From the UHGV virus genome UHGV-0205583: a stretch of 52,029 nt of DNA; one strand, written 5' to 3'. Made by a program: the position numbers and the translations under genes. Below are positions 1,993 to 28,717 of this stretch, in pieces. The notes under the pieces were generated by a model. The model ran no database searches, was not told where the DNA came from, and was given only the letters and a program-made list of their open reading frames with translations. Numbering within the stretch: the first letter of the stretch is position 1; every line of letters begins with the position of its first letter. This stretch comes from a virus.

Positions 1993-4900
1993 CCATTCGT
2001 TTTTACCCGTCCCGGCTTCCCGGTGAACCTCTCGAAACGCATGAACATGGCGTAACCAGCCTTCGTAACTGGCTGGCGGTGAATGTTGAAGGTTACGAGG
2101 ATCGGGATTTGCCGCCGCTGACCATTGAGGTTGACGGTCTGTCCATTCCGCCAGGCGAGTGGGCCACCTGCGTGATCCGCCCTGATAGTGATGTACGGCT
2201 TTATCCGGTCCCCTTCGGGCTGGAGGCAGCCACAATCGCGTGGATTGGTGTCGGTATCTCCGTTGCCGCAGCAGCCTATTCACTGTTTATGATGAGCAAT
2301 ATCGATACGGGAGGCTATACATCATCCACAGGGCGCAGTCTCGACCTGAACCCGGCGCGGGCCAACACCGCAAAACTCGGTGATGCCATTCGTGAAGTGT
2401 TTGGCCGGGTGCGTATCTACCCAGATTATGTGGTCCAGCCTGTGACCCGGTTCGACGTTGCTGATCCAACGAAGATGCGTGTCCAGATGCTGCTGAGTCT
2501 TGGGGTCGGTGACCTGGAATATTCCACTGGCGATATCCGGGTTGGCAGTACGCCAGCTTCAACGCTGCCGGGGTTCAGCAGCACCCATTACCCGCCAGGC
2601 GCTGACGTTTCCGGCGATGAGCGCAGCGAGAACTGGTTCAACTCGACAGAGGTCGGTGGAACATCAAGCGGAACAGGGCTGGACATGGCCCAGACCTCAC
2701 CTGATTCCGACGATATTATCGCTGACAGCATGACGGTTTCTGGTGCATCCGTAACCTTTACAGGCCTTGATACGGATGATGGTGACGATGACGACGAGGA
2801 CGATAATTCTCTTCCGGACAGCTGGGTAACGGGGGCCATAGTTGAAATTAAGGCGCCGACAAATTATCTGATCTCCACCTCTTCTGGTTACAGTGTTTTT
2901 GCCAGCTCGTTGCTTACCGAACTTGCTCCCGTAGCGGGTATGCCGGTGACGCTGAGTTTCAACAGTGTCGATTATGACCTCGTCATTGCGTCCTATACCC
3001 CAAGTCAGGAGGCGGTGCCTGGCGAGGGTGGCAGTGCAGCAAAAATTCAGGCCAGTGCCGCTCCTGTTACCTATGATTTTTCGACCAGTTCCAGTACGTT
3101 CATGATCACATGGCAGGGTACCACCTATACGGTGTCGCTGGTAGCGAACTATATCTCGATGTCGGGACTGCTGGCGGCTATTACCGAGGGGCTCACTGGC
3201 TCCGGCCTGGTCGCACGGGACAACGGCGGTACCGTACTGATAACCGAGGCGGCCAGTCCGTTCGTTGGTGGGGCAATCACATCCTCCTCGCTGCCTGCAG
3301 CCGTTTTCGGTGATGCCCCGGTTTACACCTCCGGCACGGCATCAACCGGCGGCAGCCCGGCGGTAACGGCGAATGTGACGCTTGCCTATAACAGCGCCAC
3401 GGGAACAGCCTTTTCCGGCATGCCGGAGGGGGTGCAACGGCTTTCACTTGCTCACCGCGGGAATGAGTACCGCATTGTCTCGACCGACGGCACGACGGCG
3501 ACGGTGGCGCGCCTGGTTAATGGTGCCGTTGATGAGTCATGGCAGGGATTCACCGCCAGGACGATGATCGACTATGAGGCCACTGGTCTTAACGACACGC
3601 TGAGCTGGCTTGGGCCTTTCCTCGTATGCCCTGAGAATGAAGTGGTGGATGCATTCGAGGTGAATTTCTCCTTCCCGAACGGCATCTGTGGCTTTGACAG
3701 TAAGGGCAAAAAACGGATCCGCCACGTTGAGTGGGAGATTCAGTATCGCGTCTACGGTTCCGGTTCGGGGTGGGTGAGTCACCAGGGCGAGTACGCGCTT
3801 AAAAACATCAACGGGTTAGGTTTCACTGAGCGGATCACCCTCAGTTCTCCGGGACTGGTAGAGGTTCGCTGCCGTCGGCGCAATGAGCAGGGCTCAAACA
3901 ACGCCAGGGATTCGATGTACTGGCAGGCACTGCGCGGGCGACTGCTGACGCGCCCTTCATCCTATCCCGGCGTGTCGCTGATGGCAGCGACCGTTGAGAC
4001 GGGGGGCAAATTGGCGGCTCAGTCGGACCGCCGCGTAAACGTTGTGGCCACGCGCGCCTATGACTCAGGAACGGCCAGAACTATCTCGGGTGCTCTGCTG
4101 CATGTCGGAAACTCGCTGGGGCTGGAGATGGATGTCGACACCATCAACGCGCTGGAGTCCGCGTACTGGACGCCACGGGGGGAAAATTTCGATTTTGCTA
4201 CCGGAGACAGTATCTCAGCGCTGGAAATGCTGCAGAAGATAGCCAATGCCGGGAAGTCCCGCTTTCTGTTAAGCGATGGCCTGGCGACGGTCAACCGTGA
4301 GGGGATTAAGCCATGGACTGGCGTGATCACTCCGCATGAGATGGTGGAGGAGCTGCAGAGCGGATTTACCGTGCCCTCAGATGATGATTTTGATGGTGTC
4401 GACGTGACGTACATCAACGGGACTACCTGGGCAGAGGAGACCGTTAAATGCCGGACGCCTGATAATCCTACGCCGGTGAAAATAGAGAATTACAAACTCG
4501 ATGGGGTACTGAATCAGGATCACGCCTACCAAATCGGGATGCGTCGCCTGATGAAATACCTGCAGCAGCGGGTGACGTTCCAGACCACTACCGAGCTGGA
4601 CGCGCTGTGCTACAACACGGGCGATCGCATAGTGCTCACGGATGATATTCCGGGCAACAACACGATTTCCTGTCTGGTGGAGGCGATGACAACGGCTGGT
4701 GGCGTGACAACGTTCACCGTCACGGAGCCGCTGGACTGGTCTTTCGAAAATCCCCGCGCGCTGATCCGTTATCAGGATGGCTCTGCATCCGGGCTGATGG
4801 TGGCGAGCAGGGTGGGTGATTTTCAGCTGTCAGTCCCGCACCTGAGCGAGTTTGATGATCCCATGCGGGTTGACCTGTCGTCGGCAACCATCGAGCCGAT

Positions 4901-5121: not shown

Positions 5122-7506
5122 ATGGCCGACAACGAAAAGCTTGGCTCGACATCACCACAGATATTGCTGAAGAACGCAACCAATCTGGATAAGTTAGTCA
5201 ATGGCCGCGAATCAGAGTCATTGCCGGATCGTTTCGCTGTACTTCGCCGCACCTGGTACGGTATGGAGATGATCTTCAATCGCTTCATCACGTATATCAC
5301 GGGACGTGGCGAACAGGCGGTAGGTGCCATTGGCTGGCAGGAGCTGGGAAACTGGGCGACTGGCCTCACGGTCGATAATCGCCAGCAAATCGTTTACTAC
5401 AATGGCTCCTGGTACAAATACCTTGGAGAGCTTGAGCACGTCATTACCGGAGATTCTCCAGAGAATGATGGTGGAGTGTGGTCGGCTGAAAACCCAACGG
5501 GGAAATGGTCGAATATTGGTGATGCGGCTCTTCGCTCAAACCTGGGTTCAGGCGACGGCCAAAAACTGGTGGGAAAGTGCGCCACTCTGGATGCACTCAG
5601 AACCACAGAGCCGGACTATCACGGGCAGGAAATAATCCTGTTTCGTGCGGCTGCCGATGGCCCTGTGCTGAATGAGAGGCTGTATTACGATGCGACGGAT
5701 ACCACATCGGAAGAAAATGGATTTTCGGTATTTGTAACGCCGAACGGTGCAAGATGGAAAGCGGATGTATCCGAGGGGTATAACGTATTTCTGGCGGGGT
5801 TTTCTCCTTCAGAAAATAACCTCGCGCAGTGCATTCATAAAATAAACGCCTGGATAGTTGCTAAGGCTATCGCTGCCAACCGGATTAATGACAGGAAGGC
5901 GACCATTCTTATTCCCGGTCTGATTGATTCTGGTGGCGCTACCGTTTACACGATGACGGAAGATGTGCATTTCTGCGCTGCGCTGGTCGAGCTGGTCCCA
6001 CTTACGCTTCAGTTCTGGGATTTTTCGAGTTCCGTTGACGTGCCGATACTGTGCAGCAATGAATTCGAGGGATTACGCGGCGGGATGGGTAACAGCTACA
6101 ACGGGGGAGCGGCTGACCAGGGCGGCTTCGCTATCAACCCGCGCAGCTTTCTCTATATCAAAGGCGGCGGCGAGGATTATACGCCCCACGGAGTAATTCT
6201 GGGGAACCGGTCGCGCCGTCCGGATGGGACAGCCTATCTCAACGTCAGAGATACCGTTATTCGCAACGTCCGGGTGTTCAACTGCGCAGATGGACTGACA
6301 TTTGGCAATTACGATACCTACGTGGTTGGTTTCGAAAACTGCAATGCCTATGCAAATACTCGTGGCCTGTCTCAGCCAACTGCAACGGCAGTGAATGCCG
6401 GTGAGCGGTGGTGGCTGAATAACTGCGTCCTGTCTAACAGCACCGAAGACAACATCTACATAAACAGCAACGGGCCGGCGATTTATTTTGACAACGTCAG
6501 TAATGATTACGCACGCCGTGATGCGTTCCGCTTTGGCCCTAATGCAGCCGGTTCTTTCCTGTTTACCAACAGCCATTTCGAAGGCTATGACGAGAAACTT
6601 ATTAACCAGCCGGTCAAAGAAGGCTCTGGCGGTCAGTGTCGTTTTCTGATGATTGGTGGGTTAACGGACTCCCGGCGTACCGGCGTGACGTATCGCGGCA
6701 TCAGGGATGTTATTTACGGGGCGACATATCGCGGCGTTATTGCTGAGTTTCGTGATGTGGATATGGGCGCAGGCCCCGCCGGTTACATGTGTAACAGCAA
6801 GTATGGGTCGTGGACCGGGGCCGAGAATCCTGCTGTTGTTATTATTCAGCACAAAAACAGCGACACCTATAAATGGTTGCCGGGTTATGGCTATGGTGTG
6901 GGTAAATACGCCCTGAATTCGGTGTACAAATTCACCGGAACATCGGGGGTATCTCTGCCGACGACGAAAGCCACCGCCAGTGCTGCCAGCGCTTACCACT
7001 GGACTTTCACTCAGGGAGGAGCAACAGCGGTATTTGGTGACGCAGATACGGACGGATTAATCCCGGTCAAAATCAGAATGACCTCGACTACGGACGTCCT
7101 CTATCTATATCAGGCGACCGAAATTCAGTTCCCGAGAAACACCAACTATCTGTCAGCGATGTGTGCGATTAAGTGCAAAAACGCGGTGGGTGAGGTGAAG
7201 GTGCAGGCTGCTCTCCGTCCACTGAGTAATCCTACAATAGCTGTTAGCGGGTCTGTTGTAACGCAAACTGAAACCGTTCGCGGCTCAGTGCTCGGCGATG
7301 AGATTGATGTACTGAATACGATACTGACCAAAAGTTATATCTCACTGACTAAAGATGATTTTGTCTCAACGCCACCACTCAAGGTGCCGAACTATTTTCT
7401 GGGCTCCGTGACATCTAACGCCGGATTTAAAATCTACGGGTTTACCGGGGAAATTGAGCTGGAGCTGCCGGTGTACTGGTTCGATAACCTGCATCCCAAT
7501 ACATGA
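5122..7506 (+). CDS. tailspike / side tail fibre with right-handed beta-helix (pectate-lyase-like) putative polysaccharide depolymerase domain
   Basis: 794 aa. The N-terminal part is adaptor-like. The central part has N/G/S-rich beta-helix repeats (NCNAYANTRG, NNCVLSNSTEDNIYINSNGPAIYFDNVS). An SD and ATG at 5122 follow the J stop. Confidence 0.65.
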   Translation: MADNEKLGSTSPQILLKNATNLDKLVNGRESESLPDRFAVLRRTWYGMEMIFNRFITYITGRGEQAVGAIGWQELGNWATGLTVDNRQQIVYYNGSWYKYLGELEHVITGDSPENDGGVWSAENPTGKWSNIGDAALRSNLGSGDGQKLVGKCATLDALRTTEPDYHGQEIILFRAAADGPVLNERLYYDATDTTSEENGFSVFVTPNGARWKADVSEGYNVFLAGFSPSENNLAQCIHKINAWIVAKAIAANRINDRKATILIPGLIDSGGATVYTMTEDVHFCAALVELVPLTLQFWDFSSSVDVPILCSNEFEGLRGGMGNSYNGGAADQGGFAINPRSFLYIKGGGEDYTPHGVILGNRSRRPDGTAYLNVRDTVIRNVRVFNCADGLTFGNYDTYVVGFENCNAYANTRGLSQPTATAVNAGERWWLNNCVLSNSTEDNIYINSNGPAIYFDNVSNDYARRDAFRFGPNAAGSFLFTNSHFEGYDEKLINQPVKEGSGGQCRFLMIGGLTDSRRTGVTYRGIRDVIYGATYRGVIAEFRDVDMGAGPAGYMCNSKYGSWTGAENPAVVIIQHKNSDTYKWLPGYGYGVGKYALNSVYKFTGTSGVSLPTTKATASAASAYHWTFTQGGATAVFGDADTDGLIPVKIRMTSTTDVLYLYQATEIQFPRNTNYLSAMCAIKCKNAVGEVKVQAALRPLSNPTIAVSGSVVTQTETVRGSVLGDEIDVLNTILTKSYISLTKDDFVSTPPLKVPNYFLGSVTSNAGFKIYGFTGEIELELPVYWFDNLHPNT

Positions 7507-7517
7507 GGAAATAAAAT

Positions 7518-7748
7518 ATGTATTACGTTTATCTGGTCAGGGATGGGCTTTATGAAGTCACCACCGCAAAGCGTGATGATGAAGAATACGTGTCATTCAG
7601 CACCGATAACACCGCTCATATCGTCGAAACGGCCGACTGGTATATTACACAGAAAAGAGACCAGGAAACCCCATCAACAACCGATAGTGCAGGCGGCGAT
7701 GATTTCATCGACCCGACACTGAAGCATTACACGGTTGTCGTTTTATAG
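7518..7748 (+). CDS. hypothetical small protein downstream of tailspike
   Basis: 76-aa ORF with an SD (GAGGAAATAAAATATG) 12 nt after the tailspike stop. Confidence 0.3.
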   Translation: MYYVYLVRDGLYEVTTAKRDDEEYVSFSTDNTAHIVETADWYITQKRDQETPSTTDSAGGDDFIDPTLKHYTVVVL

Positions 7749-10110: not shown

Positions 10111-10334
10111 AGTTTGCTCACCTGCGAACCGTATGCAAGAGATCGCAGGTGAGCAATTTGCTATGAAGGCATTGCCATAGCTGAAAAATTTTAACCTCGC
10201 ATTGTTCGCAAAACCATCAAACAGCTAAGGCCAGAAAACACTTTCAGACTAACCTTACTCGTTACATCAATGTGTTACGGCAATGACAAAAATTGATAGC
10301 CAGAACCTATATTGATCTGTCGCCCTGTTAAAAC

Positions 10335-15929: not shown

Positions 15930-18900
15930 TTATGCCTGTACGCGCAGCGCTTCGAGACGGCGCATATCAAAATCGTTAAGTTCTTCGGTGTAGTCTTCGG
16001 TAATCGGCGCCGGCCATTCGCCAGTGTCGAAACCGTTCGCGATGGCACGCATTGCTTTGCGATATTCCAGCATGCCGAGTTCCAGCAGTTCTTCGGATGC
16101 CTCGATGATGGCGATCCAGTGGTAGTTCTCGTCTTTGTTGACGAATATCCAGAAGAACTGGTCAAGGGCTGCGGTTTCGCAGTACATAGCCGCGCTCAGG
16201 TGGTAATCGCGCTCGATGATTTCCCGGTGCAGCTTCGCGCGCAGGCCTTCCTGCTTAATGTTCCACATACTGATGGTTTTCAGGTCCGCACCAATGCGCA
16301 GGCCGCCCATGTCTATTTCAAGGTCAGGGCGCACGCGAACTTCCAGCCCGGTTTCCTCATCAATGCCGAAATAGCTCACCTCGACGGCACGGCTCGGGTG
16401 CGTCAACAACTTGCCAGCGGTCGGGTGATTCAACAGTGCTTTCTGAATGGCCAGTGCCGTAGCCAGCTGCTGGCGGGTAACCAGCACTTTTCCTTCCGGG
16501 TTCTCGCGCCATGCATCCAGCAGCTCGTCGGCAAACACGGCATCCGGTTTTACCGATTTCACGGCTTGAATCAGATCGGCCTTTGTGCCAGAGACTTTCA
16601 GGGGCTGCGCCTTCTGTGCTTCCTGAGCAACCATGTTAGGATTAATAAGCGCCAGCTGTTCCAGTAAGACATCGCGGCCACCGCTGGTTTTCACCTGGGC
16701 GGGCAGGTTCGCGTTGTATTCTTTGATGCAGGCCTTCATTGCGGTGGCGGTTTGCTTCTGACCGTCTTCAATGCGCTGGAACTCAGCAGGTAAAGACATA
16801 TAACCCTGGCCGGTTTCTTCAACTGATGTACCCAAGGGAACCTGGGCGGGCAGGTTCGCGTTGTATTCCTCCAGGAATCTTTTGATGTCATCTGCGCTGA
16901 GTAAAACCGGAAGCCCGTTGTTGTATTCGTCGATAAATGCGCGGATCGTCGCCGTCGTGGTGAAGGCACCTTCCGGGATTTCCGGCTCGATACTGAATTC
17001 TTTTTCCAGCTGATCAGGCTGCAGCGCCAGTGCATGCACCAGATTGCCCATATCCAGAACAGGAGAGCGCACCTTCTGGATGGTTTTGGATACGTGGCGC
17101 GCCTCGAAATACATCAGCGATACCCGGGCATCTTTAACCATCGTGGAGCTGATGCCGTTAGCGGCGTGGTAGACCTCATTTGGCACGCCTTCATATCGAC
17201 CAGGCTCGAAATACTCCGGCCATGCTGGCGCTGCTTGTTCAGCCTCTTCCTCTTCATCGCTATGAGCACTCTCTGAAACCTGGCTTTTCAGCACTTCGGT
17301 GGTAAGATCCGGGCAGCGTTCAGCCAGTATTTTGCTCATGTTCACGGCAATTGTTTGCGCAGGAGGCTCATCAGCGCCTTCGCCTGCTGATACCGCATTA
17401 TCATTTTCGTCTTCGACCGGCTGAGCCGTTTCCATCTGCACATCGCTGGTGGTTTCCCCGGAATTAGCTGGATGTAATTTTTCTTCTGCAGCGCGCTGGC
17501 GCGCCTGGTCCACGATAGAAAGTGCTGGTGCTGGTGCTGGTGCTGGTGATGGCTGGCTATCCATCAGACCATCAATCGAAAAAACACCATTGCCCATGTT
17601 TGAAACTTCAGGCTGTTTGGGTTTGGTCAGGTCTTCGGTTATCCACTTCGGATCCGTGGGGTCACTGATGCCTTCGACATATTCGCCACGTTCGGCGGCC
17701 AGAACCTGATTAGCGTCAGGGCGTTTCTTTTGAGCTTCTTTCACCAGTTCGGTGCCAATTACCTGAAAGTCAGTTGGGAGAGTTTCCAGGTCAGGCACAC
17801 CTTCATCTCCATCGATAGCCTTTTTCACAGCGTCCAGAGTGACGGCGGCAGATGAAACATGACCAGCTTTTTCAAGAGTCTCAGCAGAAGGGGCGTCATG
17901 CTTATGCTCGGTCAGGTTCGCATTGATATAGGTCTGCAGACTTACCGGGAAATGATGAATGTCGCTAGTGGCGCCACGAATAAGGGCAAAAATCGCGGCG
18001 CGGGAATAATCCAGGATGCCTGCAACCTTGCGCAGCGCTGCCGACCATTCCTTGAACGGACTTTCTTTCTTCTGAACGATCTCTTTGGCCCGGCGGTGAA
18101 TTGATGCCGGGAAATTGTAGATATCGAAATCCATTGGCATTGTGGCCAGGGCTATTTCTACATCGAGCGTATCAAGGGTATGGGTGTAGTCAGGGTTGCG
18201 ATCGGTTTTATTACCGCCGCCAGCATTAGTTCCTGCATCAGTTTTCAAAACCGAAGAAATGCAGTTACCGGCAGCCCATTCCCTGGTGAGAATGCCGCGG
18301 TCGATCGCGTTCGTGGCGAACCACAGCTTTGCAAACTGAATACGTTTGCCGAGCTCATGCCGTTTCCCTTCCGGGAAGACTTTTTTATTGGCGCTGGTGA
18401 ATTTCCACAGGCCAGGCATATCATATTTTTTAAGCTCCGGAATATTTTCTGCCGTCAGCAGCAGATTCTGCACACCGTGATTATCCGTATCCATTTCCAT
18501 CGCTGAAAGGCGGTTACGATGAGGAATGCTAATGTGATACACGTGACGTTCGTCGGCCATATACTGGGCAAGCAGCTGCGTGCGGAATGACATTTCTGCT
18601 AGGTTGAAGAGTGCTTCTTCATTGTTCGAATAGTCCTCTTCATCGCTATTTGCAGGAGAGATATCGTTTTCTGGTTTACTGGAGGGCTGTGGTTCAGCCG
18701 CCGCCGGTGTAACGATTTTTTGCCATGTCAGCCCGTCTTTACCACCAAGCTCGTAACGATCGCACCAGGTATCATCCAGTACACCTTCTTCCGGTAAGTC
18801 ATCAACGATGAGCCAGTTGGTGCGGATCGGCAGCTGATGGCTGGCGCCGCGGCCAACGTTAATTTCAGCGTCTTCCAGGATGTCCAGGATTTTGCGCTCG

Positions 18901-18995
18901 GCGCGAGAATCGGATTTAGCAGAGAACCAGCAGAAGAGGCTTTTCGCTTCGTTTGCTTTTGCCTTAGCTTTAATGAGATACGGGTAGTTGTTCAT
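15930..18995 (-). CDS. recE: RecE-like exodeoxyribonuclease VIII (PD-(D/E)XK nuclease C-terminal domain)
   Basis: 1021 aa. The C-terminal roughly 250 aa carry a PD-(D/E)XK-like core (VRPDLEID...GADLKT). Paired with recT as in the Rac prophage. Confidence 0.7.
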   Translation of the reverse strand: MNNYPYLIKAKAKANEAKSLFCWFSAKSDSRAERKILDILEDAEINVGRGASHQLPIRTNWLIVDDLPEEGVLDDTWCDRYELGGKDGLTWQKIVTPAAAEPQPSSKPENDISPANSDEEDYSNNEEALFNLAEMSFRTQLLAQYMADERHVYHISIPHRNRLSAMEMDTDNHGVQNLLLTAENIPELKKYDMPGLWKFTSANKKVFPEGKRHELGKRIQFAKLWFATNAIDRGILTREWAAGNCISSVLKTDAGTNAGGGNKTDRNPDYTHTLDTLDVEIALATMPMDFDIYNFPASIHRRAKEIVQKKESPFKEWSAALRKVAGILDYSRAAIFALIRGATSDIHHFPVSLQTYINANLTEHKHDAPSAETLEKAGHVSSAAVTLDAVKKAIDGDEGVPDLETLPTDFQVIGTELVKEAQKKRPDANQVLAAERGEYVEGISDPTDPKWITEDLTKPKQPEVSNMGNGVFSIDGLMDSQPSPAPAPAPALSIVDQARQRAAEEKLHPANSGETTSDVQMETAQPVEDENDNAVSAGEGADEPPAQTIAVNMSKILAERCPDLTTEVLKSQVSESAHSDEEEEAEQAAPAWPEYFEPGRYEGVPNEVYHAANGISSTMVKDARVSLMYFEARHVSKTIQKVRSPVLDMGNLVHALALQPDQLEKEFSIEPEIPEGAFTTTATIRAFIDEYNNGLPVLLSADDIKRFLEEYNANLPAQVPLGTSVEETGQGYMSLPAEFQRIEDGQKQTATAMKACIKEYNANLPAQVKTSGGRDVLLEQLALINPNMVAQEAQKAQPLKVSGTKADLIQAVKSVKPDAVFADELLDAWRENPEGKVLVTRQQLATALAIQKALLNHPTAGKLLTHPSRAVEVSYFGIDEETGLEVRVRPDLEIDMGGLRIGADLKTISMWNIKQEGLRAKLHREIIERDYHLSAAMYCETAALDQFFWIFVNKDENYHWIAIIEASEELLELGMLEYRKAMRAIANGFDTGEWPAPITEDYTEELNDFDMRRLEALRVQA
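17524..17547. repeat. (GCTGGT)4 hexanucleotide microsatellite inside recE, encoding (PA)n
   Basis: Read directly from the sequence. Translated as SPAPAPAPAPAL on the minus strand. Confidence 0.85.
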
Positions 18996-19055
18996 TGCGT
19001 TTGGGCTCCTTTGGATTGTAAGATACCCGGCAGCTGATGGCAGCCGCCCTGGTGG

Positions 19056-19080
19056 TGGTCATTGGTCAAAACTCGATTCC
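19056..19080 (-). promoter_or_regulatory. copy 1 of the recurrent junction motif AATCGAGTTTTGACCAATGACCACCA (upstream of recE)
   Basis: Shares more than 20 nt with the copies at 19505, 21823 and 23318. Its embedded ATG opens a 29-codon ORF that overlaps the recE start. Confidence 0.6.
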
Positions 19081-19136
19081 GGAAAGCTTTGGTCGGCTGA
19101 CCGGGTACTTAACCCGCCTTGCGCGGGTTTTGTGCT

Positions 19137-19481
19137 TTATGGGGCTGGCGAATCGCCCCGCAGCAGCTGTGATACGCGAACGTCGTCAAGCGCTCGCAGG
19201 ATAGGCTCAAAAGTTTTATGGGCTGGCAGTTTAGATACCGCAGTGATCACTTCTGTAACGGTAATGTCATCGCCGCGGGGGCTATAACCACCACCTGGGC
19301 CACGCTGTGAAATAACCAGGTTACCCGCCCGCAGCTTTTTGAAGATCTGCTCAAGGTATGAAGTAGACAGCTTTGACTCTTTACTGATGGCCGTCAGTGA
19401 AACGGGCGAGCCGTCATAGAGCTTATTCAAAGTGGCGGCGGCCTGGACAGATGCCAGAACGCGTTTCATTCCAAATTCCAT
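19137..19481 (-). CDS. Rrf2-family transcriptional regulator
   Basis: Wing/recognition motif LSTSYLEQIFKKLRAGNLVISQRGPGGGY as in IscR/NsrR. An SD (GGAG) precedes the MEFGMKRV start. The ORF extends to 19508 through the motif ATG. Confidence 0.6.
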   Translation of the reverse strand: MEFGMKRVLASVQAAATLNKLYDGSPVSLTAISKESKLSTSYLEQIFKKLRAGNLVISQRGPGGGYSPRGDDITVTEVITAVSKLPAHKTFEPILRALDDVRVSQLLRGDSPAP

Positions 19482-19504
19482 AATCACTTCTCCGGCCGTA
19501 ACGG

Positions 19505-19525
19505 CCATTGGTCAAAACTCGATTC
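19505..19525 (-). promoter_or_regulatory. copy 2 of junction motif (TGA-ATCGAGTTTTGACCAATGG)
   Basis: Lies directly after the stop of the upstream minus-strand ORF. Contains the ATG at 19508. Confidence 0.6.
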
Positions 19526-19718
19526 AAAAACTCACTGCAGGCTGTTGGTCGTCAGCCATGTTTTGTGCATTTCGGTAGGGGAGGCACTGGCCCTGTACTT
19601 TTTGTTCATCGGCGTTGCTGTTGCAACTGGCCTCTGATGGATAAACACCGATCAGAACATCAGAGCATTCACCAGTGAGAGCACAAACGCTGATGACAAG
19701 GGCAAACAGGGTATTCAT
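19524..19718 (-). CDS. small secreted Cys-rich protein, hypothetical
   Basis: 64 aa with an N-terminal signal-like segment (MNTLFALVISVCALTGEC) and 6 Cys residues. Confidence 0.4.
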   Translation of the reverse strand: MNTLFALVISVCALTGECSDVLIGVYPSEASCNSNADEQKVQGQCLPYRNAQNMADDQQPAVSF

Positions 19719-19874
19719 GCCTCAGCCTCAGGGTTTCCTTTCTGCGCCAGCAAGTAACACAGCTGGCGTAGTCTCACCTCGAACCAGTTCAGGCGGGTCG
19801 CCTGGTTCCCGGTAGGTACTCGGGCAAAATCCTTCATAGTTATCTCCAGTTAACTCAGTATTAGGATGTGGTTT

Positions 19875-20016
19875 TGCAATGCGGCGCCGGGTGCCTCCCG
19901 GTGACGGCAGCCAGTTAACAACTACCGCCGACAACTTTTTCCCCACAACGTGTGAATAACCGCCATGTTTACTTTTTTAACTGTGCCGCGTGCGCATAGC
20001 CGCATTCACCGCATTG
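19875..20016 (-). ncRNA. third copy of the put-like structured RNA element (leftward early operon leader)
   Basis: A 9-bp closing stem (GCAATGCGG...CCGCATTGC) replaces the GGTGGTG/CACCAC stem of the late copies. The GGTGAAT, TATGCG and 3' CACCGGGAGGCACCCGGC hairpin are conserved, 22 of 23 nt versus copy 1. Confidence 0.4.
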
Positions 20017-20138
20017 CAAACCCTGATTTTTTATTTTCACTACTTCGACGCGCTTCGTCGGTGGTGTCGTGACGCTGATCTTCACGATTGAGCTTTTTCA
20101 CCCTGCAATTCACCACCACGAAGCGCGCAGGATTTCCA

Positions 20139-20267
20139 TTACATTTCAAAAGAGGCGCAGTCTGCCGGCTTACCTGAAAGCGCCGCGGTAAACTCGCTGA
20201 AACTCAGCGCCTCCTCACCTTCAGAGAGGCTTTCAAAATAGTCTTCATATGCTTTATCCATACTCAT
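20139..20267 (-). CDS. small acidic protein, hypothetical
   Basis: 42-aa ORF (MSMDKAYEDYFESLSEGEE...) with an SD (AAGGGA). First gene downstream of the candidate pL. Confidence 0.3.
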   Translation of the reverse strand: MSMDKAYEDYFESLSEGEEALSFSEFTAALSGKPADCASFEM

Positions 20268-20403
20268 TTCTTTCCCTTAAGGCCGGGCAGCCGAACGTTG
20301 AACCTGCTGCGATTGATATTGCTGTCATCTCATCCGGTGTTTCGTATGCCGCCGGCAGCTACTTCGTGGGCTTCCTGCCTCGATGACTTGCTGCGATGGA
20401 ATG

Positions 20404-20433
20404 ATTAAAGCATTGGTTTATGTTTGATGTCAA
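20404..20433 (-). promoter_or_regulatory. candidate leftward early promoter (pL-like), TTGACA-N18-TTTAAT
   Basis: Good sigma70 hexamers on the minus strand just left of the cI terminator. The flanking TTTGCAT..TATAAATCC segment resembles the sequence at the cro promoter. Confidence 0.35.
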
Positions 20434-20510
20434 CATTGGATTTATACAGATGCAAACTTTTGCTTTAATCGAGACAGGGGAGCTGTTGGAGTGATTGAGG
20501 CTGCGCGGCA

Positions 20511-20540
20511 GGCAAAAAAAAACCGGCATTTGCCGGTTTC
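20511..20540 (-). terminator. rho-independent terminator of the repressor gene
   Basis: Minus-strand AAACCGGCA-aa-TGCCGGTTT stem followed by T8. Confidence 0.7.
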
Positions 20541-20560
20541 ATGGGGTGAGATCAGAGATG

Positions 20561-20950
20561 TTAGTTAGTGTCGCTAGCCTTAAATCGACCACGGAGATAT
20601 TTCTCAACATAATCATCGATTTCTTTTAGGCGGACTTCAAACGTATCAATCATTCTCTCTTGTTCAGCCTCAGGTAACTGCCTAAACAGACGTAACATTT
20701 TGCTCTCATTTGGCTTGAGGCCTGAATCTTCAGATACTTTCTCTCCAAGCAACCAAGTTACAGACACATTGGCAGCTTCCGCGAGGGCAATTGCGGACTT
20801 TTTACTGATTACTCCTTTCTTAAACCACCCATTCACCGCTTGAGGTGTAACTCCAGCAATGCGAGCCATATCCGCCTTGCTGATCCCTCTTTGAGTAATT
20901 TCTTCCAAACGAGCAATCAGTTGGTTGTTGAGTTCTTCAGTGTTTTTCAT
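20561..20950 (-). CDS. CI-type phage repressor (Xre HTH only, no S24 peptidase domain)
   Basis: 129 aa with an HTH (ISKADMARIAGVTPQAVNGWFKKG). Divergent from cro. No C-terminal Ser-Lys peptidase domain. Confidence 0.8.
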   Translation of the reverse strand: MKNTEELNNQLIARLEEITQRGISKADMARIAGVTPQAVNGWFKKGVISKKSAIALAEAANVSVTWLLGEKVSEDSGLKPNESKMLRLFRQLPEAEQERMIDTFEVRLKEIDDYVEKYLRGRFKASDTN

Positions 20951-20995
20951 AAGCCCATTGTAAAGGTTTAGTTTATAGTCACAATAAATTAAAAA

Positions 20996-21027
20996 TTTGC
21001 ATTGAATATAAACCTATGCTTTATTAT
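20996..21027 (+). promoter_or_regulatory. candidate pR/operator region (TTGCAT-N17-TTTATT) sharing a 19-mer with the pL side
   Basis: TTTGCATTGAATATAAACC here matches TTTGCATCTGTATAAATCC at 20436..20454 (reverse complement) in 15 of 19 positions. Confidence 0.4.
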
Positions 21028-21051
21028 GCCTAACTTAACGAGGAGATAGAT

Positions 21052-21267
21052 ATGACAGCCCTTGATAACGCAATTCGAGTAGCTGGCTCAGCCAATAAAT
21101 TAGCATCAACGCTTGGAGTAAGCGGCATGGCAGTAAGTCAGTGGAAAACAAAAGGTATTGTGCCTTCATCGCGAGTTTTACAGGTTTTTAATGCAACGGG
21201 CGTTACGCCTCATGAATTACGTCCTGATCTATATCCGAATCCGACGGATGGAATACCTAAGGAGTGA
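21052..21267 (+). CDS. Cro/YdaS-like HTH regulator
   Basis: 71 aa with an HTH (LASTLGVSGMAVSQWKTKG). Divergent from cI. Confidence 0.7.
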   Translation: MTALDNAIRVAGSANKLASTLGVSGMAVSQWKTKGIVPSSRVLQVFNATGVTPHELRPDLYPNPTDGIPKE

Positions 21268-21269
21268 CC

Positions 21270-21824
21270 ATGCAAACCACCTCTTTTGAAAATCATACTC
21301 CGGTGATGAGTATGCAACTGAAAACGGAAAATCAGTATTTGCCCCGTCGGCGTGACGGCAAGAAATGCCGAGCCATTTTGGCCGCCGTTCAGGAATGGGA
21401 GTCCTCATTACCTGGGCGTGCGCAAGACCACGTCGCGCAGCTGGTGGCCGAACAGTGGGAGAAACAAAACGGGCGCGGTATCAGCGTCAATAAACAAAAT
21501 CTGTATCGCTACCTGAAAAACGAGGGCGGTTCAGAGAAGTACACCAGTTATGTCATCCAGCTTTCGGCGGCGATCGCTGATGCAATGCCGATAGAGATCG
21601 CGCGCAAACATGGCCTAAAACATGGCTTAACTGAAACTGAGCTGGTGGCCAATGCAATCAAAGAATGCAGCGAAGCGCACCAGGCCAAGTTACTTGGCGC
21701 ACCTCTGCAGAAACTAGAGCGTGAAATACGGGAAGCTGCAATTGCACTTTTTAACATGCTCCCTGCAGATGCGGCGGGACCACTACTGGCGAGCATCAGC
21801 GCCGTAGCGCCGCAATTTTTTTAA
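21270..21824 (+). CDS. CII/YdaT-like early regulatory protein
   Basis: An AAGGAG SD sits 6 nt before the ATG at 21270. The position after cro is the same as in the Rac ydaS-ydaT arrangement. Confidence 0.45.
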   Translation: MQTTSFENHTPVMSMQLKTENQYLPRRRDGKKCRAILAAVQEWESSLPGRAQDHVAQLVAEQWEKQNGRGISVNKQNLYRYLKNEGGSEKYTSYVIQLSAAIADAMPIEIARKHGLKHGLTETELVANAIKECSEAHQAKLLGAPLQKLEREIREAAIALFNMLPADAAGPLLASISAVAPQFF

Positions 21825-21847
21825 TCGAGTTTTGACAATGACCACCA
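21823..21847 (+). promoter_or_regulatory. copy 3 of junction motif (TAA-TCGAGTTTTGACAATGACCACCAGCA)
   Basis: Starts at the stop codon of the upstream gene. Its ATG at 21838 opens a 61-codon out-of-frame ORF across the rep start. Confidence 0.6.
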
Positions 21848-21875
21848 GCACCAGCTGGTTAATAAGAGGTTTCAG

Positions 21876-22859
21876 ATGGCCCGCATCAGAACAGTTAAAC
21901 CTGAATTCTGGACAGATGAGAAGGTGGTGGAATGTTCAATTCCAGCGCGTCTCCTGTTTATCGGGTTGTTCAACTTCGCCAACGATATGGGATGCCTTGA
22001 GCGTTCGCCAAAACGGTTGAAGATGCAAATCTTCCCTGCGGACGCGCTCGATTGCGAACCACTAATACAGGAACTGATTACTCATGGATTACTCACTGAG
22101 TATTCAGTGAATGATGTCTGCTATTTGCAGATTAAAGGTTTCCTTAAGCATCAAAAAATAAACAGGCCTTCGGCCTCAAAAATACCTCTTCCGCCAGAAT
22201 TCACTGAGTCTAAGGCAGGAAAGGAAGAAAAGAGAGCTCCTAATCAAGGAGGGCTCAGTGAGGACTCAGTGAATCCTCATGGAGGACTCACTGACGGAAA
22301 AGGAAGGGAAGGGAAGGGAAAAGGATCAAACCCCACTCTCTATGCGCAGGAGAGAAATTTTCCCCAGCAACCTCAGTATCTGCCTGGAGTGGATATTCCG
22401 ATCGGGAAATTCGCCATGCACGACCTTTGGCTGCCGTCACAGGACTGGCCGCGACTGGCTGCTACCTGGGGTATAGCGCTTCCCGAACCGGCATACCTGC
22501 CGACAGAGCTGGCAGAGTTCACCGCGTACTGGAAATCCGAGGGGAAAGTGTTCACTCAGATTCAGTGGGAGCAGAAATTTGCCCGCAGCGTGATAAGTGC
22601 CAGAGCCAAATCTAAACCGCAACCAGCAACCGGAGGTAAAGACCATGCAGGAATTCAACCAGTTAACACCGCATCCCGGGCAGTTCAGGAAATTCAGGCA
22701 GCCAGAGAACGCTGGGAAAAGCAAAACGGACTTGCTGGCGGCGGATACGGCATGGCGGCTATGGACAGTCATGGGGGAAATATTTTCGAACCGGTGGACC
22801 CAGAAGAACGGGGCGGCGCCCTCGGATATGTGGATTGCCCAGATCGGATCGATGAGTGA
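21876..22859 (+). CDS. phage replication-initiation protein (YdaU/O-like), putative
   Basis: 327 aa with an AGAGG SD and a basic N-terminal domain, at the position of the Rac ydaU gene. The C-terminal third overlaps the next ORF. Confidence 0.5.
   Translation: MARIRTVKPEFWTDEKVVECSIPARLLFIGLFNFANDMGCLERSPKRLKMQIFPADALDCEPLIQELITHGLLTEYSVNDVCYLQIKGFLKHQKINRPSASKIPLPPEFTESKAGKEEKRAPNQGGLSEDSVNPHGGLTDGKGREGKGKGSNPTLYAQERNFPQQPQYLPGVDIPIGKFAMHDLWLPSQDWPRLAATWGIALPEPAYLPTELAEFTAYWKSEGKVFTQIQWEQKFARSVISARAKSKPQPATGGKDHAGIQPVNTASRAVQEIQAARERWEKQNGLAGGGYGMAAMDSHGGNIFEPVDPEERGGALGYVDCPDRIDE
22299..22323. repeat. (GGGAA)n pentanucleotide microsatellite inside the replication gene
   Basis: AAGGAAGGGAAGGGAAGGGAAAAGG encodes GKGREGKGKGS. 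Confidence 0.8.
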
Positions 22860-23316
22860 AGCCCAGATTACCCTGGTCTGCAGTCAGTGCATGGAGCGCT
22901 GCGCCGCGGGTAACACATGGCCACCGGATCTGGCTGAATTCGTTGCTCTGGTATCTGCCAGCGGTGCTAACCCGTTCAATCTGACATCCGAATCTATAAT
23001 GGCGGAATACAAGCGCTGGAGGAATGAGTCTTACCGATACTCGGGCAGCGACAAATACCCATGGAAACAGGATGTTCTCTATCACATTTGCATTGAGATG
23101 CGCAGAACCGGAGTTGAGAGGAACCTGACGGAGGGAGAGCTGAAAAAACTGGCAGAAAACTTACTCACGAAATGGACCAAACACCTGGCTAACGGGTTTT
23201 CGATTCCGCCAATTCGTCAGCAGTTGGCAGCACCGAGACATCCAGCAGGACCGACGCCAGCGCAGATTCTGATGGAAGAGTACAAACGCCGCAAGGCGGC
23301 AGGTTTAACCAAGTAA
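22645..23316 (+). CDS. hypothetical replication-associated protein
   Basis: 224 aa from an ATG with a GGAGG SD. No Walker A motif, so not DnaC-like. Overlaps the 3' end of the previous ORF. Confidence 0.4.
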   Translation: MQEFNQLTPHPGQFRKFRQPENAGKSKTDLLAADTAWRLWTVMGEIFSNRWTQKNGAAPSDMWIAQIGSMSEAQITLVCSQCMERCAAGNTWPPDLAEFVALVSASGANPFNLTSESIMAEYKRWRNESYRYSGSDKYPWKQDVLYHICIEMRRTGVERNLTEGELKKLAENLLTKWTKHLANGFSIPPIRQQLAAPRHPAGPTPAQILMEEYKRRKAAGLTK

Positions 23317-23317
23317 A

Positions 23318-23337
23318 CGAGTTTTGACCATGACCAA
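23318..23337 (+). promoter_or_regulatory. copy 4 of junction motif (TAA-ACGAGTTTTGACCATGACCAAAC)
   Basis: Lies directly after the stop of the upstream gene. Its ATG at 23330 is the start of the next gene. Confidence 0.6.
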
Positions 23338-23770
23338 ACAATCAAAAACCAAAGTAACCAAAGCGCAGATGGTGCTTGCCATCGTTAGCCGGACGCCAGA
23401 ATGCGTCCTGCAGGATGTCTGCGATGCGCTGGACTTGCAAGCCAGTACGGCAGGTAACTTGCTGCGGCAGCTCCATGCCGCGGGAAAACTCCATCGTACC
23501 CATAACGGTTGCCAGTATGTCTACCGAGTTGTTGCAGGCGTTGAGGTTCCCGATGTTGCCCTGCCGCAGGCTGTAACACAATTATCTGAAGAGGATGTGA
23601 AAAAAATCCAGGACGCACTGGCCCTGGCGAAGACGCTGGAAGACAAAAAGCTGTGGCGCCGGGCTGCGACTGTTTACACATCGATGCTTGGGATGACTAC
23701 AACAGCAAACGAACTCTGGTTGCTTGCCAAAATGCGCAACCGCTGCCTGCGCAATGCGACGAGGTGCTGA
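23330..23770 (+). CDS. hypothetical winged-helix-like protein
   Basis: 147 aa with no clear SD. The start codon is embedded in junction motif copy 4. Confidence 0.4.
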   Translation: MTKQSKTKVTKAQMVLAIVSRTPECVLQDVCDALDLQASTAGNLLRQLHAAGKLHRTHNGCQYVYRVVAGVEVPDVALPQAVTQLSEEDVKKIQDALALAKTLEDKKLWRRAATVYTSMLGMTTTANELWLLAKMRNRCLRNATRC

Positions 23771-27482: not shown

Positions 27483-28717
27483 TATATTTTCCCGTCAAAA
27501 ATAAATCGGTATTCCTGATTATTCAACGCAGTCAGCTCCTGACGGGCCAGCTCGTTGTGTGCCGACGTATGTGAACGTAACAAAAAATGGACTTTTATCA
27601 CGCGCAGAAGATCCTTCCAGTAGTCACTCAAGGGCGTAGTATCGATATTAAATTCCTTGTTTTCCCGCAGAGCCTTTTCTGCTTCAAGGATGACTGTAAT
27701 GTCCTTTAAGGATTGAATTTCGGGCATATCACCCATCACCGGCAAGGTACTCATAAAGCCTTCTTGTTGTAGCGCTTTTACTTGTTCAAAATGTTCTTCA
27801 TAGATATGGAGGCTTGAGACGAAGTGATGATAATACCCCAGTTTGCATCCGGTGAGGCGGGCGACCAGTTCCTGCAACATCGTGAAGGAGAACACATCAT
27901 GGGGTAAGCCCATAAAGGCATCGTTAGAGCGCATACAGACAAAAAGATGCAATGCATCTTGTCTGACAATAAATTGCAACGATATAGTGCACGGAATATC
28001 GGCATATTCTGTCTGCTCTGGATTACCCGTCACCAGATCTGAGGCATCAAACAGTTGTATCAGCGCGCGTCGAGTAGTTCTTTTCTCCTGCAGCAGACTG
28101 ATGACATTTTCCAACTGATTATACAGCCCGTGCATACTAAATAATCTCGGACCGTATCCCCCGTGTATTCTGCCGTCGGATTCAGCGTATTTTACGTAGC
28201 GAGGTATGAAGTGCCGGATGAAATCGAGATCGTTCTGGGCTGAGAGGTACCATAGCAATTCCCCCAGACAGCTGACAATTTTACCGCGGGATTCTGTCCT
28301 ACTTATTCTGCGGCGAGGATCGGTGAGAATCAGGTAGGCTCCCAGAATTTCAATATTTGCTCCTTTAGTGGGAGTATTCCAGAGTCCGCCAGTAAGGATC
28401 GCCTGATGGACATCGTTTAACAGATCGTCAACACATTCAGCCGTCACCAGAAGAGTCATAAACTGCCTGTTATATAATGAATGTAACAAATCATTACCAC
28501 TAGTGCGATAAATAGTCAACATGCCATTAGTAAAAACAGGGCTATAACCGCTATGACACATATCATCAGGTGCGAGGTTTGACACCCATGTTTCCTCCAT
28601 TCCCTCTGGAAGCAAAAAATGTTCACGTAGAATAAGAACTGAGGGACGCAGACGCATGCAGGCCACTCGCCAGGGTATTCCTCCAAATGAACTGGCCGGT
28701 TTCCTAATATCAGCCAT
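27482..28717 (-). CDS. thymidylate synthase superfamily enzyme (ThyA-like / candidate dNMP hydroxymethylase) with N- and C-terminal extensions
   Basis: Aligns by eye to E. coli ThyA across its core blocks (LGELLWYLS, YGPRLFSMHG, RRALIQLFD, and the catalytic IPCTISLQFIVRQDALHLFVCMRSNDAFMGLPHDVFSFTMLQ). 411 aa versus 264 aa for ThyA. Confidence 0.75.
   Translation of the reverse strand: MADIRKPASSFGGIPWRVACMRLRPSVLILREHFLLPEGMEETWVSNLAPDDMCHSGYSPVFTNGMLTIYRTSGNDLLHSLYNRQFMTLLVTAECVDDLLNDVHQAILTGGLWNTPTKGANIEILGAYLILTDPRRRISRTESRGKIVSCLGELLWYLSAQNDLDFIRHFIPRYVKYAESDGRIHGGYGPRLFSMHGLYNQLENVISLLQEKRTTRRALIQLFDASDLVTGNPEQTEYADIPCTISLQFIVRQDALHLFVCMRSNDAFMGLPHDVFSFTMLQELVARLTGCKLGYYHHFVSSLHIYEEHFEQVKALQQEGFMSTLPVMGDMPEIQSLKDITVILEAEKALRENKEFNIDTTPLSDYWKDLLRVIKVHFLLRSHTSAHNELARQELTALNNQEYRFIFDGKI

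Follow-up and report, generated by a model that had tools for sequence, protein, structure and literature searches.

A conserved, transcription-oriented motif heads four gene cassettes of YdaT-type lambdoid prophages and has one copy in a candidate isrB-like antisense RNA gene

In the virus genome UHGV-0205583, a stretch of 52,029 nucleotides (nt) which in its full length is here called the window, one short non-coding sequence recurs at four gene junctions (copies A to D). The window is a Rac-like, YdaT-type lambdoid phage and is 96% identical to Klebsiella phage Kp4865-4. A comparison of approximately 200 related prophage loci from more than ten enterobacterial genera showed that this motif is a selected, cis-acting element which heads each delayed-early cassette of the YdaT-type lambdoid prophage group. 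Copy B is situated in a stretch which, as judged from its sequence and position, is a partial homologue of the Salmonella antisense small RNA (sRNA) gene isrB. The motif may act in the transcript, where an antisense sRNA of the phage would pair with it.

The 11-mer core of the motif, CGAGTTTTGAC, had exactly four exact matches in the window, at 19075-19065 (−), 19521-19511 (−), 21826-21836 (+) and 23318-23328 (+). The sole additional match with one mismatch, at 28573, was found at an unrelated site. Shuffling of the window gave an expectation of 0.74 matches with at most one mismatch, and none of 100 shuffles reached five. Copy A (19503..19524, −; AATCGAGTTTTGACCAATGGCC) is located between the stop codon of a DUF1482 gene and a cassette with an Rrf2-family regulator gene. 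Copy B (19056..19078, −; AATCGAGTTTTGACCAATGACCA), the best conserved of the four, is located in the recE leader, 3′ of a hairpin at 19111-19129 and 67 nt ahead of the start of recE; the candidate sRNA contains its complement. Copy C (21823..21844, +; AATCGAGTTTTGACAATGACCA, that is AATCGAGTTTTGAC-AATGACCA) separates the stop codon of a YdaT/CII-like gene from the replication-initiator cassette and is a hotspot of mosaic breakpoints. Copy D (23315..23336, +; AAACGAGTTTTGACCATGACCA, that is AAACGAGTTTTGACC-ATGACCA) is found between the stop codon of a P-like helicase-loader gene and a gene for a transcriptional activator with a winged helix-turn-helix (wHTH) and a PerC domain. Copies A, C and D begin only 1-2 nt past the respective upstream stop codons (TGA 19526-19524, TAA 21822-21824 and TAA 23314-23316), and all four copies have the orientation of the local genes. 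An earlier note on this sequence had described four copies, each co-oriented with local transcription, three abutting upstream stop codons and the recE-side copy following a hairpin; the exact core matches set against the shuffles, the gene calls and the positions given above agree with that description in every point. The core contains the direct repeat TGACCA-A-TGACCA. Immediately 3′ of copy C, at 21842-21849, we noticed the sequence CCACCAGC, the complement of Chi (GCTGGTGG), which opens a hairpin ACCAGC-ACCA-GCTGGT; copy B carries a near-match to this complement, CCACCAGG.

The consensus of the motif in the relatives was AAnCGAGTTTTGAC(C)AATGACCA. All four junctions were occupied in 66 of 84 sources, and most of the remaining sources were truncated contigs. 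The motif was present at the same junctions in one representative genome each of 21 species belonging to the genera Klebsiella, Kluyvera, Enterobacter, Citrobacter, Scandinavium, Buttiauxella, Dryocola, Atlantibacter, Pluralibacter and Phytobacter. Among 50,697 phage records it was carried only by Kp4865-4 and Citrobacter phage Chris1, and among 5,426 complete E. coli genomes by only two; Rac of E. coli K-12 was searched and did not contain it. In IMG/VR prophage contigs the motif was common. The occurrence in relatives at the same gene junctions, and also at mosaic breakpoints as described below, is what the earlier note had proposed to look for.

In the species-level genomes, the core had a mean pairwise identity of 0.92-0.98 and the AATGACCA part one of 0.82-0.97, compared to 0.33-0.74 for the flanking 30-60 nt on either side. 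In Phytobacter the motif was intact while the YdaT protein was only 58% identical. By these sequence comparisons, purifying selection acts on a non-coding 20-mer. Variation was seen in the spacing between the core and the 3′ half, which differed by 1 nt in about a third of the C and D copies, and in the length of the T run; the commonest variants were T-to-A changes in this run, which is a U run in the transcript.

The gene following copy A was missing in 20 loci, as a result of three independent deletions, and the core of copy A was mismatched in all of them, with a mean of 1.45 mismatches versus 0.20 where the cassette gene was present. Since the core of copy A decays when its downstream gene is lost, the constraint on the motif depends on that gene, which argues for a role in cis in its expression. 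The Rrf2 cassette is deleted in the loci L087 (around 6206), L090 (around 6680), L093 (around 5975) and L028 (around 3621), all on the minus strand, leaving a gap of 91-113 nt between copies A and B. In L090 and L093 a residual mini open reading frame (ORF) of 6 codons fuses the start of the cassette to its end at a repeated CCAGCC. In several other loci (L005, L047, L055, L092 and others) an alternative cassette at junction A has a conserved leader of approximately 145 nt between the motif and the Shine-Dalgarno (SD) sequence and ATG, with the hairpins GGCUU(A/G)CCAGCC and GCCCGGUGCACAGGGC. The reading frame from the ATG of the motif is not kept in this leader, which may therefore be a structured RNA leader. 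A divergent relative, L168, displayed six copies of the motif, at 3830, 6247 and 7206 (−) and at 10248, 10442 and 10817 (+), and has an extra gene of about 224 amino acids between two of them, as expected from the insertion of a cassette at a motif.

Copy B differs from the other copies in its surroundings. It is embedded in a conserved non-coding island of 120 nt, with limits approximately 80 nt before and 60 nt after the core, and the plus strand of this island contains a candidate gene for an IsrB-like antisense sRNA of approximately 108 nt (19031..19138, +), proposed from a sub-threshold Rfam match to isrB, from homology and synteny with isrB of Salmonella prophage Gifsy-2 and from the predicted folds. 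The candidate RNA would consist of a 5′ stem-loop, an open stretch CAAAACUCGAUU complementary to the core of the motif, a stem CCGG..GCUUUGGUCGG..CCGG and a Rho-independent terminator (AACCCGCCTTGCGCGGGTTTTGTGCTTT, 19111..19138, +) identified in a terminator and consensus scan. The U tail of the terminator was kept in the 71 island variants, and conservation ended right after it. Within the terminator and its extension, four pair states, of a variant or of the majority, stay paired through G-U on the plus strand only, and none stay paired on the minus strand only. A putative −10 element of the sRNA gene, TG-TAAGAT, is located at 19017..19024 (+; TGTAAGAT) and has its equivalent in the TG-TAGAAT of the Gifsy-2 isrB gene. 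In 18 diverse relatives this element had the form TG-TAnnAT, with hexamer positions 1, 2, 5 and 6 (T, A, A, T) and the preceding TG invariant. A small protein coded on the plus strand of the island was considered and rejected, as a 55-codon ORF found there was not conserved in relatives. The terminator part of the island (19110-19145) showed 92% identity over 36 nt to unannotated intergenic DNA on 21 E. coli plasmids. In the Rac prophage of E. coli K-12 (L225, around 6400-6480) a hairpin AGCCTGCGCCATACGCAGGCTATTTCTTTC is located between racC and recE and is terminator-like only in the direction opposite to recE. Rac-like phages may therefore commonly have an antisense RNA across the recE leader.

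The island was compared with isrB of the Salmonella prophages Gifsy-2 and Gifsy-1 (RF01386). IsrB-1 and IsrB-2 were detected in Salmonella as RNAs of 88 and 94 nt by northern blot and primer extension and were described as cis-antisense to the flanking genes (PMC2330248), and IsrB-1 is expressed in RNA-seq data of Gifsy-2 lysogens (PMC7067206). In Gifsy-2, isrB (5993-6080, +; 99.3 bits in Rfam) is located between recE/sbcA (STM1009) and STM1010, both on the minus strand, and thus between recE/sbcA and its upstream gene and antisense to both (PMC2330248). The same arrangement was found here, with the island at 19031-19138 (+) between recE and the Rrf2 gene, both on the minus strand. The two loci also share the TG-TAnnAT element in the recE leader and, in an alignment, a 3′ scaffold which in Gifsy-2 has a stem CCGG..GCTTTGGTCGG..CCGG and a terminator with a U tail. 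The 5′ ends of IsrB map 7 and 13 nt after its −10 (PMC2330248), and by analogy with the longer of the two forms, which begins 7 nt after the −10, the candidate sRNA would start near 19031. The 5′ domains are unrelated: unlike IsrB, the candidate contains the exact complement of the junction motif and an additional 5′ stem-loop. On this evidence the candidate gene at 19031-19138 (+) corresponds to isrB in position and is in part homologous to it in sequence.

Because copy B lies inside a relative of isrB, the other three copies may be pairing sites of its RNA. That copies A, C and D are bound by an IsrB-like RNA from the B island, the expression of which is here predicted, may well be so, and we put this reading forward tentatively, as the best of those considered. 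In the 71 island variants that were folded, CAAAACUCG, the complement of the invariant core, formed the main open stretch, with a mean unpaired probability of 0.91 compared to 0.38 for the whole RNA, and the complement of the less conserved 3′ half of the motif was paired with the variable 5′ arm. The 20-nt anti-motif gave duplexes of −27.6 to −29.5 kcal/mol with copies A, C and D, and the next best site in the window gave −23.1. Apart from the antisense strands of the four copies, no other complementary sequence which could represent such an sRNA was found elsewhere in the window. Copies B and C co-occurred in 151 of 151 loci with enough flanking sequence on one side and in 137 of 141 with enough on the other. 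Of the four loci without this co-occurrence, L168 at least has a C copy lacking the ATG, which had been excluded by the filter. In B copies with ATA in place of the ATG, pairing with the G of the targets would still be possible via G-U. In one genome, L180, a T-to-G change at core position 6 was present in both copy B (CGAGTGTTGAC) and copy D (CGAGTGATGAC), the two sites being at 7538 (+) and 3279 (−). This is a single case, which could represent compensation, gene conversion or chance.

Several observations weigh against pairing by an IsrB-like RNA. No covariation between seed and targets was seen in the relatives, a consequence of the seed almost never varying, and a whole clade has CGAGTATTGAC at junction D together with an unchanged copy B, leaving an uncompensated central mismatch. 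A bias of target substitutions towards wobble pairs was rejected: a bias that appeared to be 9-fold when contexts were counted was gone when substitution types were counted, since a small number of positions at the 3′ end next to the cassette accounted for it. The supplements of K. pneumoniae RIL-seq (RNA interaction by ligation and sequencing) contained nothing usable, and no special accessibility of the motif was predicted in the sense mRNAs. As for the sRNA gene itself, no −35 element was found, and no family reached its threshold in the Rfam search; a permissive search of the island matched isrB at 19054-19133 (+) with 16.3 bits, far below the gathering score of 35. The sense strand of the recE leader has predicted structures of its own (19003..19048, −). 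A hairpin GGCGGCUG-CCAU-CAGCUGCC (19029-19048), beside the −10, has G-U pairs which favour folding of the sense strand. The conservation of the −10 block is also explained by an anti-SD pairing in the leader, in which GGGUAUCUU (19020-19028) pairs with the SD region of recE, AAGGAGCCC (19003-19011), as predicted in five of eight leader types. From these sense-favouring G-U pairs and the anti-SD pairing, both strands may be functional. Finally, repeats complementary to the 5′ domain of IsrB were searched for in Gifsy-2 and none were found, so that IsrB, unlike the candidate described here, has no repeated targets in the early operons of its own prophage. Action in trans is thus not a trait of the family and would be a lineage-specific gain.

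The proposed regulation by the IsrB-like RNA may be depicted as follows. The RNA would have the recE leader as its target in cis. In trans, it would pair immediately 3′ of the DUF1482, YdaT and P-like stop codons, at the heads of the Rrf2-type, replication-initiator and wHTH/PerC-activator cassettes. At junction D the duplex would cover the start codon, and at junctions A and C it would form 25-40 nt before the actual ribosome-binding site. The result, which is speculative, would be a block of translation and/or duplex-directed cleavage, and the recombination, replication and activator genes might thereby be kept silent until sense transcription outruns the RNA. As the promoter of the sRNA lies in the recE leader, a threshold behaviour is proposed, likewise as a speculation, in which strong leftward sense transcription interferes with this promoter and titrates the RNA. 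The target being a module boundary, any cassette newly placed behind the motif by recombination would be subject to this control as well. An IsrB-family antisense RNA would in that case have gained a 5′ seed matching every delayed-early module head (Rrf2-type, recET, replication and PerC-type), a step which we consider possible although doubtful, and immunity or timing would thereby acquire a second, post-transcriptional layer.

Antisense RNAs of temperate phages offer precedents. The OOP RNA of lambda is a short antisense RNA that ends at a terminator in or next to an early gene and forms a duplex with the sense mRNA. OOP acts only in cis, on cII, whereas the RNA proposed here would have three additional sites in trans. 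In PMC4825925, the CI RNA of P4 is described to pair with seqA and seqC on the early transcripts of P4 and to keep the replication genes off in the lysogen. The likeness lies in one small phage RNA being complementary to repeated sites on the early transcripts of the same phage. According to the same source, P4 CI RNA and its targets come from one strand, the RNA arises by processing, and it acts by premature termination of transcription, whereas the candidate here would be a separately transcribed antisense RNA with four sites in two divergent operons.

A different explanation, which we regard as unlikely, is that the motif is a double-stranded DNA site of a conserved phage or host protein, acting in an orientation-dependent manner as a roadblock or regulator at the heads of the cassettes. 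The stoperators of cluster A mycobacteriophages (PMC9283540, PMC6550527) are such sites, being asymmetric, located in short intergenic gaps, in one orientation and in both genome arms, and the motif resembles them in being asymmetric, intergenic and co-oriented with transcription. The direct repeat in the core and the decay of the motif upon loss of the downstream gene would also suit a protein site, and among the phage proteins the wHTH/PerC activator is a candidate, as its gene always follows copy D and has its start codon inside it. Stoperators have the sequence of the immunity-repressor operator and occur in dozens of copies per genome, whereas the motif has four copies (six in L168) and differs from the operator-like repeats in the cI-cro interval, TAAAGC-N4-GTTTA; moreover, an identical motif is carried by phages with differing immunity regions. 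On these grounds the motif was rejected as an operator or stoperator for either the immunity repressor or Cro, and the binding site for a phage regulator suggested in the earlier note is not upheld for these two proteins. The YdaT operator of CP-933P is reportedly TTGATT-N6-AATCAA; no such site was found in the early region, and this candidate was likewise rejected. The spacing change of 1 nt and the variable T run would be poorly tolerated by a rigid protein, and the proteins encoded after copy D are of several diverged types while the motif is constant. A protein site would furthermore leave the location of copy B in a homologue of an sRNA gene unexplained.

The motif coincides with mosaic breakpoints, as it is the only sequence common to modules that are otherwise swappable. 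In BLAST comparisons with eight relatives, alignments stopped at 21841-21844, the 3′ edge of copy C, in seven, and began at 19504-19512, the 3′ edge of copy A, in five. The replaced Rrf2 segment reached down to 19143-19147, where homology with the relatives resumed. When all pairs of distinct loci were considered, the right ends of homology blocks fell inside the motif in 79% at junction C and in 38% at junction A. Phage pairs were also found in which the replication genes upstream of junction D were non-homologous and the downstream genes 93-98% identical, with homology setting in 7 nt before the core, and both edges of the motif were used as breakpoints. At junctions C and D, several upstream types were joined to shared downstream types, showing that modules have been reassorted. 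An all-against-all BLAST of the downstream segments gave no true match between junction classes and no cassette at another class of junction, and exchange is therefore position for position.

Could the motif then be a recombination linker only, kept by RecET-mediated exchange between phages and without any role in expression? Short conserved boundary, or linker, sequences in lambdoid phages are cited in PMC3029335 (its references 21 and 22), so that the concept is established, and the motif shares with them a short conserved sequence at gene boundaries at which mosaic homology starts or stops and modules reassort. The breakpoints cluster at both edges of the motif, upstream and downstream module types reassort, and the phage encodes both RecE and RecT. 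The identity of the motif is nevertheless far above that of its flanks across more than ten genera, it decays where the cassette gene is deleted, and no cassette was found at a different class of junction. Recombination does not need strict orientation with transcription, and the long conserved upstream genes at A and C provide far more homology than 20 bp. Compared with the lambdoid boundary sequences, the motif is different in that one sequence is reused at four junctions, oriented with transcription, under selection tied to the downstream gene and linked to an sRNA gene. A role as linker alone is consequently judged distinctly improbable. The suggestion of the earlier note that the motif is a boundary for modular exchange holds insofar as breakpoints fall at the motif and modules reassort, whereas free shuffling is absent and the motif decays with the downstream gene.

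Similar considerations apply to the T4-type PeSL (early promoter and stem-loop) cassettes (PMC2839356, PMC4122927), in which a repeated regulatory motif precedes variable ORFs at the boundaries of insertions, deletions and replacements, as it does here; the extra gene between two copies in L168 is a PeSL-like feature. Unlike PeSL, the motif has neither a promoter nor a fixed stem-loop, and its cassettes are not shuffled between sites. A mobile cassette of the PeSL type was rejected, there being no −10, no conserved structure of the motif and no ORF cassette shared across sites.

The motif contains an ATG, and a shared region for translation start, re-initiation or ribosome standby, acting directly or through a short coupling upstream ORF (uORF), has been considered; its chance of being the correct explanation is slim. 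In its favour, copies A, C and D adjoin the stop codon of the preceding gene. At junction D a long ORF begins at the ATG in almost all cassette types, homologues without a later in-frame ATG among them, and the ATG serves as the true start in all D cassette types. From these ORF comparisons the ATG of copy D is a start codon. The earlier note was right that the embedded ATG is, in this window, the start of the gene at 23330, gives in its copy before the Rrf2 regulator an in-frame extension of 9 codons and in the other two copies opens out-of-frame ORFs of about 30 codons over the recE start and about 60 codons over the replication start. In several families of C cassettes the end of the uORF touches or overlaps the real start (UAGAUG, UAAAUG, UAAUG, AUGA). 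In at least eight independent A, B or C copies of relatives the core was kept and the ATG replaced (by ATA, ATT, ACG, AAA or ACC), which was never seen at D; the Citrobacter group has ATA in copy B, ATA is also found in some A and C copies, and four of the six copies in L168 lack the ATG (ATT, ACC, AAA, ATA). The lengths of the uORFs were not conserved among relatives, the one at C in this window extending out of frame for 60 codons across the start of the replication gene, and a control reading frame met stops equally near to the real starts. Coupling by a uORF was for this last reason rejected as a selected feature. Complementarity or similarity of the motif to 16S rRNA, including resemblance to the 16S 5′ end, was no better than in shuffles, the sense mRNAs showed no special accessibility as mentioned above, and an ordinary initiation region has no need for 11 invariant bases. 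As the ATG is dispensable outside D and the uORF lengths are variable, the general translational-coupling or re-initiation signal of the earlier note is unlikely: neither a start codon at every copy nor a uORF stop near the real start has been kept.

Still less credible is a processing site for an RNase, for instance RNase E cutting at AG|UUUU, which would separate immediate-early from delayed-early cistrons. RNase E has a loose RN|WUU preference. The U-rich motif fits it, hairpins flank both sides at most junctions, and the constraint is tied to the downstream gene. RNase E does not need an invariant sequence of 11-20 nt, however, and the variants of the motif seen most often have a T-to-A change in the U run. 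Other candidates were rejected outright. A sigma-70 promoter is contradicted by 232 distinct contexts, in none of which TAnnnT was present 16-18 nt after TTGACN, and a consensus promoter scan found no promoter at the copies; the view that TTGACN is present without these being promoters, already expressed in the earlier note, is thereby confirmed. By eye, the core has no match to the boxA (GCUCUUUA) of a nut site (boxA and boxB), and the ATC part of the consensus for integration host factor is not conserved across the copies. The hairpins following copies A, B and C differ in sequence, and copy D has none.

Taken as a whole, the interpretation in the earlier note stands for the copies being real, oriented, not promoters and located at breakpoints, and is not supported for the embedded ATG as a general mechanism and for binding of the immunity repressor or Cro. 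Overlooked were the isrB-like gene around copy B, the selection tied to the downstream gene and the fixing of the cassettes to their class of junction.

The genes surrounding the copies were identified by gene calls and family searches. On the minus strand, recE (exonuclease VIII, 15930..18995) is downstream of copy B, and the Rrf2-family regulator cassette (19137..19508, likely true start 19481) follows copy A and is swapped or deleted in relatives. On the plus strand, the YdaT/CII-like gene (21264..21824) is upstream of copy C and the replication initiator with a DnaT domain (21876..22859) is the cassette following it; the P-like helicase loader (22852..23316, start approximate) is upstream of copy D, and the wHTH and PerC-domain transcriptional activator (23330..23770) starts at the ATG of this copy. 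A tandem repeat GGAAGGGAAGGGAAGGGAAAAGG inside the replication-initiator gene (22296-22320) may represent origin iterons. In the region 20385-20545 (−), a strong terminator (20540-20519) follows the repressor gene, and past it, at about 20435-20400, a leftward promoter-like site TTGACA-18-TTTAAT was found by eye. This site is probably the early left promoter, with the operator-like repeats TAAAGC-N4-GTTTA. At 19873-20018 (−) there is a weak Rfam match to the sRNA family STnc100 (33 bits, E 2e-4, gathering score 47), and the same approximately 150 nt are the only part of the region 18.8-23.8 kb in common with 582 E. coli genomes and Shiga toxin (Stx) phages.

A literature search for the motif sequence retrieved only unrelated eukaryotic primers and nothing in a phage context. 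Boundary sequences, antisense RNAs of temperate phages and IsrB are all known kinds of element; their combination is not described in the literature searched. In this combination a single motif heads four modules of two divergent operons, surpasses the genes in conservation and has one copy in an isrB-like gene. A widely conserved boundary sequence of enterobacterial prophages is thus under selection for a function in cis and is more than a by-product of recombination. As a practical consequence, the 14-20 nt motif is a simple marker of this prophage group in the genomes of Klebsiella, Enterobacter, Citrobacter and Kluyvera. If the copies are indeed pairing sites of an IsrB-like RNA, the mosaic exchange of modules, the control of delayed-early genes and the IsrB family would be linked. 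This would explain how newly acquired cassettes are controlled without evolving regulatory sites of their own, and it would provide a testable role for IsrB-type RNAs, for which no function is described in the literature searched.

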